Of a DNA stretch of 64,000 bases, positions 19,170 to 24,588 are shown piece by piece. The stretch covers positions 1,888,001 to 1,952,000 of the forward strand of contig CAWIIB010000001.1 of assembly GCA_963836075.1 (NCBI GenBank). The letters run 5' to 3'. Each line of letters starts with the position of its first letter. Within the stretch, counting starts at the first letter, position 1. This DNA comes from an uncultured Acidobacteriota bacterium (GTDB taxonomy: Bacteria; Acidobacteriota; JAQAZP01). Below the pieces are notes generated by a model. That model was not told the origin of the DNA and searched no databases. It saw only the letters and a program-made list of their open reading frames with translations. The translations under genes and the position numbers were made by a program.

Positions 19170-19205
19170 AAAAAAACGGGATGAAACCCGAGAGTCTCAT
19201 CCCGT
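19170..19205 (-). terminator. Intrinsic terminator of RRM gene 1
   Basis: ACGGGATGAGAC/GTTTCATCCCGT stem followed by T7 on minus strand; conserved behind paralog. Confidence 0.8.
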
Positions 19206-19289
19206 CCTTCTCAAACGATCCCGGCCGGATCGGGTTCACCCCTCACTCAGTGCAGGGGAGTGTCCCGGTCCGGCACCGGATGCTGCGCC

Positions 19290-19550
19290 CTAGTAACGGG
19301 GACGCCGCTCTTCCCGGGGCCGGGCTTCGTTGACCTTCAGATTACGACCGCCAAGCTCCTTGCCGTCGAGGGCGCGGATGGCTTCGTCGCCGCCCGAGGA
19401 CATCTCGATGAAACCGAATCCCCGCGGACGGCCGGTGTCCCGGTCGGTGATCATCTTGACTTCATCCACGGTGCCGAACTCTTCGAACATTTCGCGGATG
19501 TCGCTCTCGGTGGAATCAAAGGACAGGTTGCCAACATAGATATTCGTCAT
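19290..19550 (-). CDS. Single-RRM RNA-binding protein (Rbp type), copy 1
   Basis: RNP2 IYVGNL and RNP1 RGFGFIEM; LKVNEARP; 86 aa. Confidence 0.95.
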   Translation of the reverse strand: MTNIYVGNLSFDSTESDIREMFEEFGTVDEVKMITDRDTGRPRGFGFIEMSSGGDEAIRALDGKELGGRNLKVNEARPREERRPRY

Positions 19551-19941
19551 GGTCTTTATTCTCGTTTCCTTTTTCATGATCGGTCTCGAGGGTGGATACC
19601 ACTCCCGATCGATCGTCCTCGCGGCCCAGCAGATTCAGCTGAAGGCTCGGAGGGCCCCTTGTGGGGCTAGTGTTCTCTTGATCCGGCACCAGTTGTCACT
19701 ATTGACCACCGGCGCATTCTCGACTCGTGCGTCGTCGCGCTCCTCTTCGCTTATTCAAACCTTGCTGCCCGCTGAAACAAAAAGAGCCTCCGCAACGGTG
19801 AATCCAGGCCGGCAGTCTGAATGGGGCGCCGTCCCGGCCACCGTCGCGGTAAGGGGTTTCCGATCCACATCCACTCAATAAAAAGAGGCGGTCTCTAGAC
19901 CGCCCCTCTCACTTGCGTGCGACATGTCCGAAAACTCAAGC
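19551..19941 (-). ncRNA. Candidate structured 5' leader RNA of RRM gene 1 with internal terminator (19877-19910)
   Basis: Colinear similarity to 23851-24236 with compensatory changes and minus-strand G-U pairs; extended -10 TGgTATAGT at 19944-19952. Confidence 0.6.
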
Positions 19942-20105
19942 GGACTATACCACCACCATGGGAAAAAGTATAGAAAAATAAAATATTTATATCGTTGTCA
20001 GGTACCGACGCCGCCCCGGGGAAGCCCGGTGTTTCATCTATCCATGCATTGTCCATGAAAACGTCCCCGGCGATGCCGCCGACGGTCACACAAGCAGCCA
20101 TGGCA

Positions 20106-20372
20106 TCAGGAGGACAGGGTAACCCAGTTTCCGCAAATACCGGAGATCGGCGTGGACATTGATGTCCCGCCGGGGCCAAAGCCGACACCCGCCTGAGCCG
20201 GGCTCAGACTCTCGTCGACGCCCATCCCTGGTCCCAGGTGGCCGGTGAAGGTTTCATAAGCGGTTGAAAAGTGCATGGAACCAGCCGGAGGCGTGAACGT
20301 CTTGCCACAGCCAAGGGCCGAAGTCTCGAAACTCGTCTGAGATTGCATGGTGGGGGGCGAATACTTTTTCAT
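20106..20372 (-). CDS. Small peptide, putative RiPP-precursor-like (88 aa)
   Basis: Strong RBS GGAGGAGAGA-ATG; MKKYSPPTM..FETSALGCGK leader-like N-terminus; Ser/Thr/Gly-rich remainder with a second Cys. Confidence 0.6.
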   Translation of the reverse strand: MKKYSPPTMQSQTSFETSALGCGKTFTPPAGSMHFSTAYETFTGHLGPGMGVDESLSPAQAGVGFGPGGTSMSTPISGICGNWVTLSS

Positions 20373-20578
20373 TCTCTCCTCCGCTGCTGATGGACGCATT
20401 ATCGCTCCGGGTCGATACCGCGCGTCTGGAAAGCAGGCCCATTCAACGACTGAACGGTCCGGGGGAAACCCAAACTTGCCTGCACCGTCAACCAGTACAT
20501 CCTTGCTTCAGGAGCAGCCCAGCACTGGCGGAACGAGTTTCAGACCGAGGCCGTGGCAGCGTTGATCACAGCTTCACG

Positions 20579-20692
20579 TCACTGTGCTCTTTTCGGCTGC
20601 TTGTCCTCCTTTTTCTTCGCTTCCTGCTGCTGTTTACTTTTTTTCTGTTTCTTGATTCTGTCCTTGTCCTTCTTGCCGCCTTTGTCGCCCAT
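20579..20692 (-). CDS. Small lysine-rich protein (37 aa)
   Basis: MGDKGGKKDKDRIKKQKK...; purine-rich RBS-like AAGGGTGA; strongly biased composition. Confidence 0.55.
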   Translation of the reverse strand: MGDKGGKKDKDRIKKQKKSKQQQEAKKKEDKQPKRAQ

Positions 20693-21421
20693 TGTTTCAC
20701 CCTTTCCCCTGCCAGGTTCATCGTTCAGGCACAGCCGCAGGTTCACATCTATAGTATTGATATGATGCATCATAAAGTGGGTTTAAGCAATAAAAATCGA
20801 TAGTGCTGTTCGGCCAGTAAGGGCAACAGCTTTATTGAATCGGGATGGGGTCCACCTCTGTCCACCGGGAACCCACTGCAGAACCAGCTCAGATTTTCTT
20901 CGCGCAGCCGCGTGCCCCTGTGGGAACTGGATGATGTACTCTATGTAAAAAATTACCCTGAATACCAATAATTATCTGCTCACAGCCGGTTACGCTCGAG
21001 GGGGCCATTACAAATATATGTATTATTGTCATGTGTTTATACCCACACAAGGATACGACGCCAAGGCAGTGGAATAACAATTGCTTATTGTACGCCATAC
21101 AACCAAATATACAAAAGGTCAGTTCATCCAACTGTATTAGGACCTATGATCTGGCCTTGGCAAATGTTCATTCCCGAAATGGGATACAACAACAGCGCAT
21201 TTTGCTGTTATGTATCTAAGGTGTTTAATTTTTCAACCCACTCACATCGCTCACGGGCCGGGAGGGGAGGTGTCATTTTTGGAGGTACTCGCGGTGAGTA
21301 GCGGGGCGCATTCCACCCAGGTGGAGCGTTCGGCGACTACCGTGAGGTGATATACCCGTGTTGATTTGTTCATAATCCACTACACGGTCAGAATTCCTAT
21401 TCCATTTGGAGGAAATAGCTG

Positions 21422-23146
21422 ATGAAGAAGTATTTCCTGATTTTCGCCCTGGTGATCTGTTTCTGTTCCTGGGGTGCCGTGGCCGACGAGACCACCTGTT
21501 TCCCCACGGCTGCCGCTGACAACACCGGCTCCACCGACGGCGCGACCATCACCGACTCGAGCATGATCCGTGGTTACAGCATGGAGGATGGCTGGGCCAA
21601 GTTTGACGTGTCCGCCATTCCTGACACCAATACGGTGACCCAGGTCGACTTCAACTTCTATGTGAACAGCACGTACCATCCCTACTGGAGCACCACTCCG
21701 GTGACCATCGATCCGGTGGGCGCCGACCCGGCCGCACTCGCCAGTGACATCACTGCCGAAGCGAGCACCGGCTACTACAACTATCAGAACGAGTCGAGCA
21801 CTTACGCTCCTGGGTGGAAAACGCTGACCCTGGGCGGCAATGCCGTGGCCGACATAAACGCCGCCCTGGCCGGCGACGCATTCACGGTGGGTATCGCCAG
21901 CCGCGACAACAGCACGACCTACTACATCATCATGGACGGCTGGAACGAGGCCAACGCGCCCTACTTGGTAGTGACGCACACCGCCGATGAGATCTGCTTC
22001 CACGACGGTTGCTCGGACGCCTATCCCATCGCATCCGGCGAGCTGTTCCAGGGCAGGAACTGTGCCTGCACCGACGACTTCCAGGATTACGCTTGTGCCC
22101 CCTGGAGCTTCCTCGGACCGGACCAGGTGTTCACCATCGACCTGGAATGCACCGGCACCCAGATCGACGTGAACTGCACGCCGACCGACGGGTGGGATCC
22201 GGCCATCGCCATCGGTTTTGAGTGCTCAAACGGGAACCTGGTCTGCCTCGCCGCCGCGGACGCGGGATTTGGCGGTGATCCGGAGGCCATCAGCTATCTC
22301 ACCACCGTCGGTGAAGTGGGTACTCTCTACATCTTCGTCGATTCCTACTATTCAGGAGGAGGCCTGGAATGCGGCGATTATGACCTGACCGTTACTTTGG
22401 ACAACGGCATTCCCAACGACGTCTGCACGGACGCCATCCCCGTGGCCGTGCCCTCGGTGACCCACGGCACCACCGATTGCGCCACGTTCGACGGGGCGCC
22501 GCTCTGCGTGACTTCGCAGACCGCGCCAGGTGTCTGGTACTCGGTTATCGGCACGGGCGTCACCATGTATGCCGAAACCTGCGGTCCCACCTACTGGTAT
22601 GATACCAAGATCTCGGTATTCACCGACGGCTGCGACACGCTGACCTGTGTCACCGGCAACGACGACAACTGCCCGGACGGCGCCAGCGGACTGCTGAGCG
22701 GTGTCCTGTGGGACAGCGTCGAGGGGCAGGAGTACCTGATCCTGGTGCACGGCTTCAGTTCTGCCACCGGTGAGTTCGACCTCTATGTGGATTCCGATGT
22801 GGTGGACACCTTCGACGTGACCATCACCTGCGTCACGCCGTCTGTTGTAATTCCCGGCATGGTGAGCCTGAGTGTCGACGTGACCAACCTCACCGACGCG
22901 CCGATCACCGTGAGCGGCCACGTGGACGCCACCCTCTGCAACGGCGTCGAGGTAGGACCGATCCGCAACGGTTTCCTCTACCTCAACCCGTTCGAGACCA
23001 AGGCCATCGCGTGGACACAGGGGCTTTGGGCGGCCAATCCCAGGACCTGCGACTGTGATCTGATCTGGACGGTCTACGCACAGGATGATGCAACGCTCGT
23101 CGAAAAGACGAACTCCTGCGTCATCTCCACGACGTGCCCTAAATAG
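21422..23146 (+). CDS. Secreted Cys-rich protein: DNRLRE/CBM96-like N-domain, two PPC-like domains, divergent C-terminal domain
   Basis: GGAGG RBS, signal peptide; KFDVSAIP..FNFYVN..PYWS domain shared with 27320-28723; NDVCTDAIPV-type modules. Confidence 0.8.
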   Translation: MKKYFLIFALVICFCSWGAVADETTCFPTAAADNTGSTDGATITDSSMIRGYSMEDGWAKFDVSAIPDTNTVTQVDFNFYVNSTYHPYWSTTPVTIDPVGADPAALASDITAEASTGYYNYQNESSTYAPGWKTLTLGGNAVADINAALAGDAFTVGIASRDNSTTYYIIMDGWNEANAPYLVVTHTADEICFHDGCSDAYPIASGELFQGRNCACTDDFQDYACAPWSFLGPDQVFTIDLECTGTQIDVNCTPTDGWDPAIAIGFECSNGNLVCLAAADAGFGGDPEAISYLTTVGEVGTLYIFVDSYYSGGGLECGDYDLTVTLDNGIPNDVCTDAIPVAVPSVTHGTTDCATFDGAPLCVTSQTAPGVWYSVIGTGVTMYAETCGPTYWYDTKISVFTDGCDTLTCVTGNDDNCPDGASGLLSGVLWDSVEGQEYLILVHGFSSATGEFDLYVDSDVVDTFDVTITCVTPSVVIPGMVSLSVDVTNLTDAPITVSGHVDATLCNGVEVGPIRNGFLYLNPFETKAIAWTQGLWAANPRTCDCDLIWTVYAQDDATLVEKTNSCVISTTCPK

Positions 23147-23160
23147 GTACACGTTATGAA

Positions 23161-23199
23161 AGTGGGGTGCGGTCGCCCGACCGCACCCCACTCCCTTTT
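23161..23199 (+). terminator. Intrinsic terminator
   Basis: 14-bp perfect stem AGTGGGGTGCGGTC/GACCGCACCCCACT followed by ccctttt, just after stop. Confidence 0.75.
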
Positions 23200-23467
23200 C
23201 ACCAGCTTCAGATCCACCCCATCATTCTCAGACCGGTTCCCACTCGTCCCAGCCGGCAACCCATCCTGCTGATGATGTATTCGATTTAACTCGAACAGGT
23301 TTCCACTGATTGCCGAGCCCAGAGCCGAGATTGTCATGTTTCAGGCGGCAATATAACGGCTCCCGGGGGCCACGGTGGCGGTACTGTTCAGCAGCTTCCA
23401 TTGGCTATATGTGTCTGATACTCGATGGACGGGGAAGCTCGCAGCATATATGCCATGCCTTGTGTAC

Positions 23468-23506
23468 AAAAGAAAACGGGATGAAGCCCAAAGAACCTCA
23501 TCCCGT
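23468..23506 (-). terminator. Intrinsic terminator of RRM gene 2
   Basis: ACGGGATGA/TCATCCCGT stem + TTTTCTTTT; homologous to 19170-19205. Confidence 0.75.
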
Positions 23507-23589
23507 CTTTATCGAAAGACCCCGGTCGGATCGGGTCTCCACCTGAACTTTACAGAGGCACCACCGGCACGGCACCGGGATGCAGCACT

Positions 23590-23850
23590 CTAGTACCGGG
23601 AACCCCGCTCTTCACGGGGCTTCGCCTCGTTGACTTTCAGGTTGCGGCCGCCGAGTTCCTTGCCGTCGAGGGCGCGGATGGCTTCGTCGCCACCCGAGGA
23701 CATCTCGATAAAACCGAATCCCCGCGCACGACCGGTGTCACGGTCGGTGATCAGCTTGACTTCGTCCACGGTGCCGTGCTGTTCGAACAGCTCGCGGATA
23801 TCGCTCTCGGTGGAATCAAAGGACAGGTTTCCAACATAGATATTCGTCAT
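23590..23850 (-). CDS. Single-RRM RNA-binding protein, copy 2
   Basis: MTNIYVGNLSF..RGFGFIEM; near-identical to 19290-19550. Confidence 0.95.
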   Translation of the reverse strand: MTNIYVGNLSFDSTESDIRELFEQHGTVDEVKLITDRDTGRARGFGFIEMSSGGDEAIRALDGKELGGRNLKVNEAKPREERGSRY

Positions 23851-24236
23851 GGTCTTTCTTCTCGTTTCCTTTTCAAGATCAGACCCAGGGAAGGCCCCTG
23901 GTTGATCGTCCCCGGGGCTCAGCAAATTCAGCTGAATGCTCGGAGGGCCCCTTTCGGGGTTGGTGTTCTCTTGACTTGGGCACCAGTCGTCACCGCTGAC
24001 CACTGATGCTCAGATGACTCTTGCGTTGTCGCGCTCCTCTTTGCGCATTCAAACCTTGCTGCCCGATGGACTCATTTTGAGCATCCACAACGGTTAAACC
24101 GGACCGGCAGTCTGAATGGGCGCCGACCCGACCACTGTTGCGGCTGCGAGCTTTCGATCCACATCCACGCAATAAAAAGGGGACGATCTCAAGACCGTCC
24201 CTCTCACTTGCGTGCGACATGTCCGAAAACTCAAGC
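23851..24236 (-). ncRNA. Candidate structured 5' leader RNA of RRM gene 2 with internal terminator (24171-24205)
   Basis: Paralog of 19551-19941; extended -10 TGaTATAGT at 24239-24247. Confidence 0.6.
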
Positions 24237-24588
24237 TGACTATATCACCAACGAAGCGAAAAGCATAGTAAAATTAATATTTTACACCGAACCCGTCACC
24301 GTGCAGGTGGCCCTGTGAGACTGATGATGGGGCCAATGTAACCACTAACCAGCAAATATCCTTGGTCGCAGGTGGGATCAGGTGGATCAGCCGATTCCTC
24401 ATGCTGATGGCATCTTTCCTCCTGTTGGCCAAGACATTGCGGAGGATGAACCCCCGGAGAAGCCACGCGGCATGGCAATTAACCACTATTTCTTGCTTTG
24501 GCAACACCCCAGCCCTATATTTTACGTTGATAGATAAACCAATGGCGGTCATGGGCTGACGAGCGAATGAGGAGATAAGGAGACAACA

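Follow-up and report, generated by a model that had tools for sequence, protein, structure and literature searches.

The view that bacterial RRM proteins stand in for cold-shock proteins and for Hfq-like chaperones has emerged only recently. Bacteroides thetaiotaomicron carries three RRM-1 paralogues, rbpA, rbpB and rbpC, with 5′ UTRs of 122–155 nt, as well as one canonical CSP, and its rbp genes are under negative auto- and cross-regulation at 21 °C, exerted partly through the 5′ UTR (PMC13370968). The pertinent passages of that report describe neither a UTR structure nor a leader terminator, and its authors raise a thermosensor role as an open question (PMC13370968). The Chlorobi-RRM motif (RF01697) is a candidate cis-regulatory RNA located upstream of RRM-protein genes in one lineage (PMC2864571). 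The locus described here belongs to a lineage of uncultured sediment Acidobacteriota with three RRM-gene copies, every one of which has a leader of 350–400 nt. As far as the B. thetaiotaomicron system is described in those passages, the resemblance lies in three single-RRM paralogues, each with a long 5′ UTR, plus one cold-shock gene. The two systems differ in phylum and in UTR length (~350–400 nt compared with 122–155 nt). As with Chlorobi-RRM, a structured RNA lies 5′ of RRM genes and is confined to one lineage, but the phylum is different and an Rfam search that included RF01697 gave no match. The leader is a well-defined candidate for the control of RRM synthesis, which, to judge from the same passages, is an open question even in Bacteroides.

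In Escherichia coli, the cspA promoter combines a TGn extended −10 with an UP element, and the cold box of the leader is implicated in the CspA-dependent attenuation of cspA transcription; this leader is not known to contain a canonical hairpin-plus-U terminator. In the E. coli S10 operon, L4, a ribosomal protein working with NusA, acts on the nascent leader and raises intrinsic termination without a competing antiterminator fold. The cspA leader of E. coli is ~160 nt long (PMC13370968). In Staphylococcus aureus, a stem-loop in the cspA 5′ UTR carries a U-rich motif on its right arm; CspA binds there, melts the stem and antagonises RNase III, which results in negative feedback (PMC5815144). 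The Acidobacteriota leader resembles that of E. coli cspA in being a long leader on the gene of an abundant RNA chaperone whose extreme 5′ end forms a conserved block, and that of S. aureus cspA in having a long 5′-proximal stem-loop with a U-rich right arm. Unlike in E. coli, the protein belongs to the RRM family and not the CSD family, and there is no Rfam match at E up to 10. The S. aureus RNA, which is unrelated in sequence, acts according to the passages on it through antagonism of RNase III and not through termination, whereas here a GC-rich stem leads straight into the U-run, the arrangement of a terminator.

The window, i.e. the whole stretch of 64,000 nucleotides that was analysed, contains two of the three leader–RRM gene pairs, A and B (Table 1). 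Their colinearity over 19551–19950 and 23851–24245, proposed in the preliminary description, is borne out by 79% identity in BLAST, and the pairwise identity of leaders A and B is 0.79 with all columns counted and 0.81 when the count is limited to aligned columns. The ATG codons of genes A and B are at 19550 and 23850 on the minus strand, which corrects that description. The description had listed two copies; a third leader with its RRM gene (L003) is found elsewhere in the genome, outside the window. The same leader type thus heads all three close RRM paralogues of the lineage. Eight leaders are found in total, in all three genomes of the class that were examined, and each of the eight is directly followed by an RRM gene in the sense direction. 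The A/B tandem pair, with a spacing of ~4.3–4.6 kb, recurs in a second species. Each of the three genomes contains one CSD gene, and at least five RRM matches are among those listed for the source genome.

Table 1. Features of the two leader–RRM gene pairs in the window (positions are those of the 64,000-nucleotide stretch)
Feature	Position	Strand	Basis
RRM gene A, 86 aa, one RRM_1 domain	19290..19550	-	ORF; Pfam RRM_1 E 1.2e-19
RRM gene B, 86 aa	23590..23850	-	ORF; Pfam RRM_1 E 4.8e-19
Leader A, 5′ UTR ~388 nt	19551..19938	-	5′ end inferred from −10 box
Leader B, ~383 nt	23851..24233	-	5′ end inferred
Extended −10, promoter A, TGGTATAGT	19944..19952	-	sequence
Extended −10, promoter B, TGATATAGT	24239..24247	-	sequence
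−35-region motif CTATAC, conserved, and A+T-rich stretch upstream (UP-like)	19968..19993	-	promoter strings of all 8 leaders
5′ domain A: closing helix 1, small CAC-GCAA-GUG hairpin, terminator hairpin	19856..19935	-	consensus fold, helices 1–3
5′ domain B	24150..24230	-	consensus fold
Terminator-like hairpin A, GGGGCGGUC-UAGA-GACCGCCUC + U5	19879..19909	-	−16.2 kcal/mol
Terminator-like hairpin B + U5	24173..24204	-	−15.3 kcal/mol; flagged by consensus scan
Long hairpin A, helices 4 and 5; loop 19815–19826 holds invariant UUCAGAC	19786..19853	-	consensus fold
Long hairpin B, helices 4 and 5, UUCAGAC loop	24081..24147	-	consensus fold
Invariant GGUUUGAA, complementary to UUCAGAC loop, possible pseudoknot	19754..19761	-	7 pairs, 8/8 leaders
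Invariant GGUUUGAA, copy B	24048..24055	-	alignment
Helix 8 hairpin A, sequence varies, pairing kept	19686..19715	-	6/10 pairs compensatory; 5/32 columns invariant
CCCC-tetraloop-GGGG, then CCUC...GAGG around UCAGC/GCUGA, invariant CCUCCGAGC + UUCAGC (copy A)	19617..19667	-	fold and alignment
CCCC-GAAA-GGGG hairpin and CCUC...GGGG domain, copy B	23910..23960	-	consensus fold
GAUC-closed hairpin A, variable module, helices 12 and 13	19578..19614	-	consensus fold
GAUC-closed hairpin B	23877..23907	-	consensus fold
Ribosome-binding region A, purine-rich, largely unpaired	19551..19577	-	predicted pairing
3′ intrinsic terminator of gene A, 13-bp stem + U7	19170..19204	-	sequence; −18.3 kcal/mol
3′ intrinsic terminator of gene B	23473..23509	-	consensus terminator scan; stem energy

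The consensus fold of the eight leaders pairs 95.9% of cells on the gene strand and 82.9% on the opposite strand (105 cells are G-U). Compensatory changes occur at 19 of its 95 pairs, compared with 9.2±2.1 in shuffled alignments, none of 500 of which reaches 19; this control overstates significance, and the eight sequences, from three related species and three paralogue groups, are kin and not independent. When pairing partners are slid, 3–5 pairs show compensatory change. The folding energies of leaders A and B lie far below those of their dinucleotide shuffles (MFE z-scores of −5.3 and −6.4, 100 shuffles each). Conservation of the leaders (0.67–0.91) equals or exceeds that of fourfold-degenerate sites of the respective genes (0.54–0.89), and the DNA past the promoter does not align (0.11–0.54 in global alignment). 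The structured, conserved leader with an internal terminator-like hairpin that had been put forward is present on the gene strand, with covariation above both the shuffled and the slid controls. It has the features of a structured cis-regulatory leader RNA: paired on the gene strand, compensatory in its changes and located upstream of one gene family.

All copies come from one small lineage and G+C-rich RNA folds well in any case, which would suit a leader with no function, whose similarity is a remnant of duplication and whose folds are a by-product of composition. We consider this extremely unlikely. Conservation ends at the promoter, beyond which the flanks are randomised, and it is mosaic, with invariant loops beside a helix that keeps its pairing with only 5 of 32 columns invariant; the z-scores point the same way, and the duplication is older than the split of two species. 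Leader conservation at or above that of fourfold-degenerate sites, next to flanks that do not align, likewise speaks for selection and against recent duplication.

As had been noted, an extended −10 of the form TGnTATAGT lies just upstream of both stretches on the minus strand (TGGTATAGT and TGATATAGT), and the TGn and TAnnnT elements are kept in all eight leaders of the alignment. To judge from this box, transcription probably starts immediately downstream of it. A second promoter within the leader was considered and dropped, as the eight-leader alignment contains no other conserved TGn/−10-like box.

The RNA begins with an 80-nt domain of three helices, located almost at its 5′ end, with the terminator-like hairpin at the tip. 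The block that is identical in copies A and B is 38 nt long (~37 nt in the earlier count). The hairpin and its U-run are present in both copies, at 19882–19909 and 24176–24204, and the stem covaries as previously claimed, with a G-C pair replaced by A-U at columns 45/60. Helix 3, the terminator stem, has three pairs with compensatory change and 98.9% of its cells paired; in helix 1 the latter figure is 96.4%. All eight leaders have the form of an intrinsic terminator at ~+30 to +70 of the RNA, i.e. a G+C-rich stem of 8–9 bp, a tetraloop and U5–U7, with stem energies of −13.3 to −16.2 kcal/mol in the seven leaders measured (G002_a was left out). The consensus terminator scan flagged hairpin B and missed hairpin A. 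The RRM genes themselves end in canonical terminators consisting of a stem and U7–8, which indicates that the organism uses such signals. The G-U pairs at the stem base (columns 39–40 with 66–67) never turn into G-C, as expected if selection acts on the U-run itself.

The terminator-like hairpin sits inside a larger one, the 3′ strand of which comes after the U-run. The read-through RNA is thus itself a selected, folded form, and the arrangement fits a purely structural 5′ hairpin equally well. Three Us of the U-run pair with upstream purines, so that their conservation may partly serve pairing. As an alternative to a terminator, the hairpin could be a 5′-terminal stem for stabilisation or processing, with an RNA chaperone bound to its U-rich right arm as in S. 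aureus cspA. Its position, a few nucleotides from the putative 5′ end and within a closed 80-nt domain whose 3′ strand extends beyond the U-run (helix 1, 96.4% paired), agrees with such a role. We regard it as rather unlikely, as the stem, tetraloop and U5–U7 match exactly the form of the organism's own 3′ terminators and no copy has G-C in place of the G-U pairs at the stem base.

Neither arm of the terminator stem has a complement in the 30 nt upstream of it, and in the consensus fold these 30 nt sit in helix 1 and the small hairpin. With no alternative antiterminator pairing visible, conditional read-through would rest on a putative factor. The leader is best read as a cis-regulatory RNA with a protein-controlled attenuator, which would place the RRM paralogues under feedback or cold control; we give this reading about an even chance. 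A share of polymerases would stop at ~+70 at the terminator hairpin, and a trans-acting RNA-binding protein would set this share through the near-invariant first 40–65 nt. The most likely candidates for this factor are the RRM proteins; the single cold-shock-domain protein of the genome is another. The three paralogues would in this way regulate themselves and one another, probably in connection with cold adaptation. As a proposal, this is analogous to the S10/L4 system, in which a protein encoded downstream acts on a leader terminator, although the RNAs are unrelated. In a stronger version, the near-invariant first 65 nt would be a protein-sensing attenuator, with an RRM protein setting termination of its own transcript and of those of its paralogues, and the 300-nt fold, with its invariant loops and the possible UUCAGAC/GUUUGAA pseudoknot, would serve the RRM proteins as a dedicated RNA partner instead of being a passive UTR. 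This version is distinctly unlikely; if true, termination set by an RRM protein would be the first instance of RRM-dependent transcription attenuation among bacteria. The candidate control unit, in which promoter, 5′ block and terminator precede a large conserved fold, is repeated on three paralogues, and the suggested mechanism, with its terminator ahead of the fold, is testable in vitro without culturing the organism.

Two coding explanations of the 5′ region were rejected. An ATG in the 5′ block starts frames with lengths of 16, 76 and 4 codons in the three copies of the source genome and is missing from one relative, which does not suit a leader peptide, and the ATG-started frames of the leaders include no conserved upstream ORF. 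An N-terminal extension of the protein is contradicted by a frame that is open in copy B only and by indels that are not multiples of three. In public data, the leader is covered patchily by the assembled contigs of sequencing runs. Contig ends near 19765–19803 probably reflect repeats among the paralogues, and one 151-nt contig from an RNA-seq run, whose library may contain DNA, covers 19772–19921 across the U-run.

Between the 5′ domain and the purine-rich ribosome-binding region lie ~300 nt of helices with invariant loops. The core of the long-range helix in the preliminary description, UUCAGAC/GUUUGAA, is complementary in all eight leaders; the outer A-U pair of the helix is broken in three of eight, and the UGCC/GGCA part has one broken pair in two of eight. 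Both sides of the core are invariant and so show no covariation, and the UGCC/GGCA pairing is in competition with helix 5, a local hairpin that has better support. The CCCC-tetraloop-GGGG hairpin is confirmed at 19654–19667 and 23947–23960. The GATC-closed hairpin exists in copies A and B, as described, but is absent from two of the eight leaders.

Positions −22 to +3 relative to the start codon form the most open part of the RNA, with a predicted unpaired probability of 0.35–0.70, compared with ~0.3 elsewhere (eight leaders), so that control by masking of the start is not indicated. The large fold is transcribed later than the terminator; therefore it can neither sense for that terminator during transcription nor control it. 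For these two reasons, the terminator at ~+30 to +70 that precedes the 300-nt fold and the open ribosome-binding region, the earlier label "riboswitch-like" finds no support. The size of the RNA, its conserved multi-helix fold and its invariant loops would be in keeping with the binding of a small molecule that controls expression, but the sole terminator precedes the fold, pairing leaves the ribosome-binding region open, Rfam offers no match, and the genes regulated encode RNA-binding proteins and none is metabolic. The probability of a riboswitch is next to negligible. With the attenuator as the preferred reading, the ~300 nt most likely act on the full-length mRNA via stability, protein binding or translation.

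The whole leader could also adopt another fold in the cold, yielding a stabler or better-translated mRNA with no protein involved, as in an RNA thermosensor of the cspA type. The known setting of such elements, in the relevant passages, is the long leaders of cold-induced RNA-chaperone genes (PMC13370968), and here the long-range UGCC/GGCA pairing and helix 5 exclude one another and most copies could form either, so that two conformations are conceivable. This reading is decidedly improbable, as the second fold lacks covariation support and Rfam gives no cspA match at E up to 10. Predicted folding at 10, 25 and 37 °C also shows no consistent closing of the ribosome-binding region or change in its openness in the eight leaders.

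The leader RNA might instead be the stable particle partner of the RRM protein encoded in cis, or its terminated 5′ RNA of ~65 nt might act in trans as an sRNA. Each of the three paralogues retains its own copy, the invariant single-stranded motifs UUCAGACUGCCG, AGGUUUGAA, CCUCCGAGC and UUCAGC resemble binding sites common to all copies, and the promoter and terminator would together yield a discrete short RNA. We nevertheless find this very unlikely, since the RNA passes into the coding region with no intervening terminator or processing signal and no copy occurs apart from an RRM gene in the three genomes.

Rfam 15 gave no matches in the 64-kb window at the gathering score. At E up to 10, the region 19200–24400 matched only sR40 and mir-483, with 19.4 and 18.3 bits compared with gathering scores of 50 and 60. 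The models searched include the cspA thermoregulator, Chlorobi-RRM, Acido-1 and Acido-Lenti-1. The leader thus matches no known Rfam family, and its novelty stands in this respect; most likely, it is a new RNA family serving an already familiar kind of control.

No credible leader was found in 148 other genomes of the phylum. Covariance models R1, R2 and R3 each represent one of three sections of the leader. At 27 loci that surround RRM genes from other families, they gave no upstream match in the sense direction at E < 0.1; the best matches, R2 on L070 (E 0.0013) and R3 on L075 (E 0.042), are in the wrong orientation, distant from the gene or within it. Across 151 genomes of the phylum, R1 gave one outside match, a hairpin in G032 (E 0.0075) with no RRM gene nearby, and R2 gave 10 outside matches with E 0.005–0.05, where ~7 are expected by chance; none of the 10 is at any of the RRM places listed, which exclude 102 weaker matches. 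Three BLAST matches of 25–30 nt with E ~0.01 in G003, G010 and G025 were taken as chance. In the source genome, R2 and R3 detect no extra copy upstream of other genes, the single csp gene included, and the three genomes of the class contain no leader away from an RRM gene.

A pattern scan of the genome collection returned seven loci, of which five are leaders and two are chance. The same kind of scan in metagenomes returned 44 loci, only four of which contain the leader (two of them cut), each close to one of the three genomes; in nine others, the chance fit comes from a protein-coding gene. In Acidobacteriota, RRM genes belonging to other families also have long conserved leaders, unrelated in sequence to the one described here. 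Control through a leader may therefore be a general trait of RRM genes, with RNAs specific to each lineage.

Two of the eight copies of the leader lie in the window, ahead of RRM genes A and B, a third precedes an RRM gene of 87 aa on another contig of the same genome (L003), and the others belong to two genus mates. The leader is a conserved structured RNA, read on the gene strand and carrying an internal terminator-like hairpin.

Positions of the leaders, RRM genes and 3' terminators in the window
Feature	Position	Strand	Remarks
Leader A, non-coding	19551 to ~19938	-	directly upstream of RRM gene A
RRM gene A, 86 aa	19290-19550	-	single RRM_1 domain, Pfam E 1.2e-19
Leader B, non-coding	23851 to ~24233	-	directly upstream of RRM gene B
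RRM gene B, 86 aa	23590-23850	-	single RRM_1 domain, Pfam E 4.8e-19
3' terminators, genes A and B	19170-19204 and 23473-23509	-	also in the 3' flanks of loci L003-L011

The colinearity of the two ~385-nt stretches noted in the preliminary description is borne out by 79% identity in BLAST and, in pairwise alignment, by 0.79 over all columns and 0.81 over aligned columns. The third copy (L003:1489-2105 with its gene) is 73% identical in BLAST, ~353 nt long and devoid of the GATC hairpin; with the orthologous leader of a genus mate (L010) it shares 0.88-0.89 identity. Recent duplication alone does not account for this similarity: leader identity (0.67-0.91 over aligned columns) equals or exceeds that of the fourfold-degenerate sites of the leaders' own genes (0.54-0.89), the 300 nt past the promoter do not align between copies, and the A/B tandem pair, 4.3-4.6 kb apart, is found in a second species too, so the copies are old. 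Genes A and B both end in a canonical stem-plus-U terminator, a feature conserved among the RRM paralogues (CGGGAUGA...UCAUCCCG plus U7-8, eight of eight genes), and the duplicated unit therefore spans promoter to terminator. Between the two genes lie the reading frame of a cysteine-rich protein of 574 aa whose N-terminus resembles a signal peptide (21422-23146, plus strand) and a putative 64-aa lysine-rich ORF (KKDKDRIKKQKKSKQQQEAKKKEDK; 20579-20773, minus strand), neither of which has a Pfam match.

The leader is headed in both copies by the expected TGnTATAGT, kept as TGn plus TAnnnT in all eight leaders, and about 18 nt before this box lie an A+T-rich stretch and a conserved (C/A)TAT(A/G)C motif. 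Pairing probably begins at nearly the first base of the RNA, since helix 1 (GUUUUCGG-A-CAUGUC) starts 6-8 nt past the -10 box. The 5' strand of helix 1 is followed by a small CAC-GNNA-GUG hairpin and by the terminator-like hairpin, which consists of an 8-9-bp G+C-rich stem (-13.3 to -16.2 kcal/mol in the seven of eight leaders measured) and a tetraloop, and runs directly into U5-U7; this 80-nt 5' domain then ends with about 10 unpaired variable nucleotides and the 3' strand of helix 1. Next come a 68-nt hairpin with an invariant loop, a region with GGUUUGAA and the purine-rich AGAGGAG, helix 8, the unpaired UCAAGAGAACAC, and the CCCC-tetraloop-GGGG hairpin described previously, which adjoins CCUC...GAGG, itself enclosing UCAGC/GCUGA. 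The GATC-closed hairpin, also present as described, is optional, being absent from two of the eight leaders and larger in one. Partition-function folds show the purine-rich final 25 nt as the most open part of the leader (unpaired 0.35-0.70, compared with ~0.3 elsewhere).

The RNAalifold consensus of the eight leaders has 98 pairs, 95 of which were counted. On the gene strand, standard pairs occupy 95.9% of 738 cells; on the opposite strand the same structure pairs in 82.9% of cells, 105 of them by G-U, and this weaker pairing indicates that the RNA is read on the gene strand. Two-sided changes occur in 19 pairs, compared with 9.2±2.1 in 500 shuffles, none of which reaches 19, although the eight sequences come from three paralogue groups in three related species, and the control overstates significance because such kin are not independent. 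When the partners are slid by 1-3 columns, only 3-5 pairs show two-sided change. Compensatory pairs are concentrated in the terminator stem (three, with 98.9% paired), in helix 4 at the base of the long hairpin (five), in helix 8 (six of ten pairs, with 5 of 32 columns invariant) and in the GATC hairpin (three). Conservation is a mosaic, in which invariant runs of 6-12 bases (CGGUCU, UUCAGACUGCCG, AGGUUUGAA, CCUCCGAGC and UUCAGC) alternate with stretches having 5-16% invariant columns. Single leaders also fold better than their dinucleotide shuffles (minimum free energy z of -5.3 and -6.4, 0 of 100 shuffles as good). That the leader has no function is among the less likely readings.

Of the features described earlier, only the long-range helix is no more than a candidate. 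Its core, UUCAGAC/GUUUGAA, is complementary in all eight leaders, but both sides are invariant; the outer A-U pair is broken in three and UGCC/GGCA is broken at one pair in two. The UGCC/GGCA part excludes helix 5, a competing local hairpin that is 97.7% paired and in which seven pairs vary on one side only. With helix 5 formed, UUCAGAC would lie in a 12-nt loop and could pair with GGUUUGAA in a possible pseudoknot.

The hairpin plus U-run, whose stem covaries as first described, is kept in all eight leaders and has the form of the genes' own 3' terminators, only weaker (U5-7 vs U7-8; -13 to -16 vs -17 to -27 kcal/mol). The G-U pairs at its base never become G-C, consistent with the Us themselves being under selection. 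Taken together, its form, its conservation and the kept G-U pairs suggest, by analogy, that it is most likely a partial terminator, an attenuator. Fold, strand and terminator anatomy thus uphold the description of a structured leader with an internal terminator. They do not uphold the label riboswitch-like: transcription reaches the large fold only once the terminator has been passed, so the fold cannot be its sensor, which makes a riboswitch less likely. The 30 nt upstream contain no complement to either terminator arm, hence no RNA-encoded antiterminator, and these two features point to control by a trans-acting factor. The block reported as identical between A and B is real, 38 nt long (38/38), and is their most conserved; it lies within the first 65 nt. 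From this anatomy and by analogy, read-through would be set by a factor acting on these 65 nt; candidates are the RRM gene products and the one cold-shock-domain protein of the genome. The 300 nt beyond would in turn influence the complete mRNA, whether through its stability, its translation or additional protein binding.

A stem that stabilises the RNA or serves its processing, and that may bind a chaperone on its U-rich right arm by analogy with S. aureus cspA (PMC5815144), would explain the nesting of the hairpin in helix 1 equally well. A protein-free thermosensor is possible, but neither the temperature folds of the leaders nor covariation, which gives no sign of a second fold, supports it; a role of the leader as partner RNA of the RRM protein or as a small RNA is less likely. 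Contigs of public runs cover gene and leader piecewise at a depth of 2-14. Among them is a 151-nt RNA-seq contig (19772-19921) that crosses the U-run; it hints at read-through weakly at most, as the library may contain DNA.

In BLAST over 41 genomes the leader occurs only in its own genome and the two genus mates, at eight places; three 25-30-nt matches in other genomes (E ~0.01) were taken as chance. These three genomes are the whole of the class in the collection (3/3). Of the covariance models built for three parts of the leader, R2 and R3 recovered the same eight places in them and no further credible copy; no credible match came from 148 other genomes of the phylum or from the surroundings of 27 RRM genes belonging to other families. 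RRM genes as such are widespread in the phylum, with 121 of 151 genomes having them. Two genomes marked unpublished, G025 and G048, enter these tallies and no other result. Searching the genomes of 185,579 species for the exact pattern gave seven loci, five of them leaders in records titled Acidobacteriota bacterium (MAG) or uncultured bacterium and two chance matches. Among 44 metagenome loci, four have the leader, each close to one of the three class genomes; nine (L016, L019, L030, L031, L034, L042, L047, L050 and L053) are chance matches, not RNA, which share a fixed 62-nt span because the pattern lies within a protein-coding gene conserved among unrelated bacteria. By their labels, the public runs in which at least half of the sampled words occur are salt-marsh and marine-sediment metagenomes. 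Rfam gave no match at gathering score in the 64-kb window and, for the leader region, no relevant one even at E up to 10. The RNA family is new and confined to a small uncultured lineage, though its kind is already known.

Leaders of that kind are long, regulatory and attached to RNA-chaperone genes; its relatives in this sense are the 5' UTR of E. coli cspA, that of S. aureus cspA (PMC5815144), the Bacteroides rbp UTRs (PMC13370968) and the Chlorobi-RRM motif (table of PMC2864571). By Rfam search the leader belongs to none of these in sequence or structure; it is two to three times longer and differs in having a canonical terminator near its 5' end that precedes a large conserved fold. PMC13370968 reports for Bacteroides thetaiotaomicron that its three RRM-1 paralogues, which have long 5' UTRs, show self- and cross-repression in the cold, partly via the UTR. 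The balance it gives recurs in each of the three class genomes, with 3-5 RRM matches vs a single cold-shock-domain gene (L109 in the own genome, L108 and L110 in the others). A fourth RRM gene of the own genome (L105, same contig, ~100 kb past the window; protein 65% identical) has no leader match by BLAST, R2 or R3; the own genome also contains a fifth RRM match.

Other Acidobacteriota RRM genes have conserved leaders of their own. The closest homologues outside the class (60-69% identical; L068-L073, six loci of one family in three genera) share a ~180-nt leader behind a promoter of the type TTGCA...TATACAGT. Its sequence bears no relation to that of the leader studied, and a simple scan gave no terminator-like hairpin. 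Two of three paralogues in another genome (L103 and L104) share a ~170-nt leader, again unrelated in sequence. Leader control of RRM genes thus seems general, and the RNA studied lineage-specific. In the third paralogue of the latter genome (L102), a strong hairpin plus U5 lies instead 111 nt ahead of the start.
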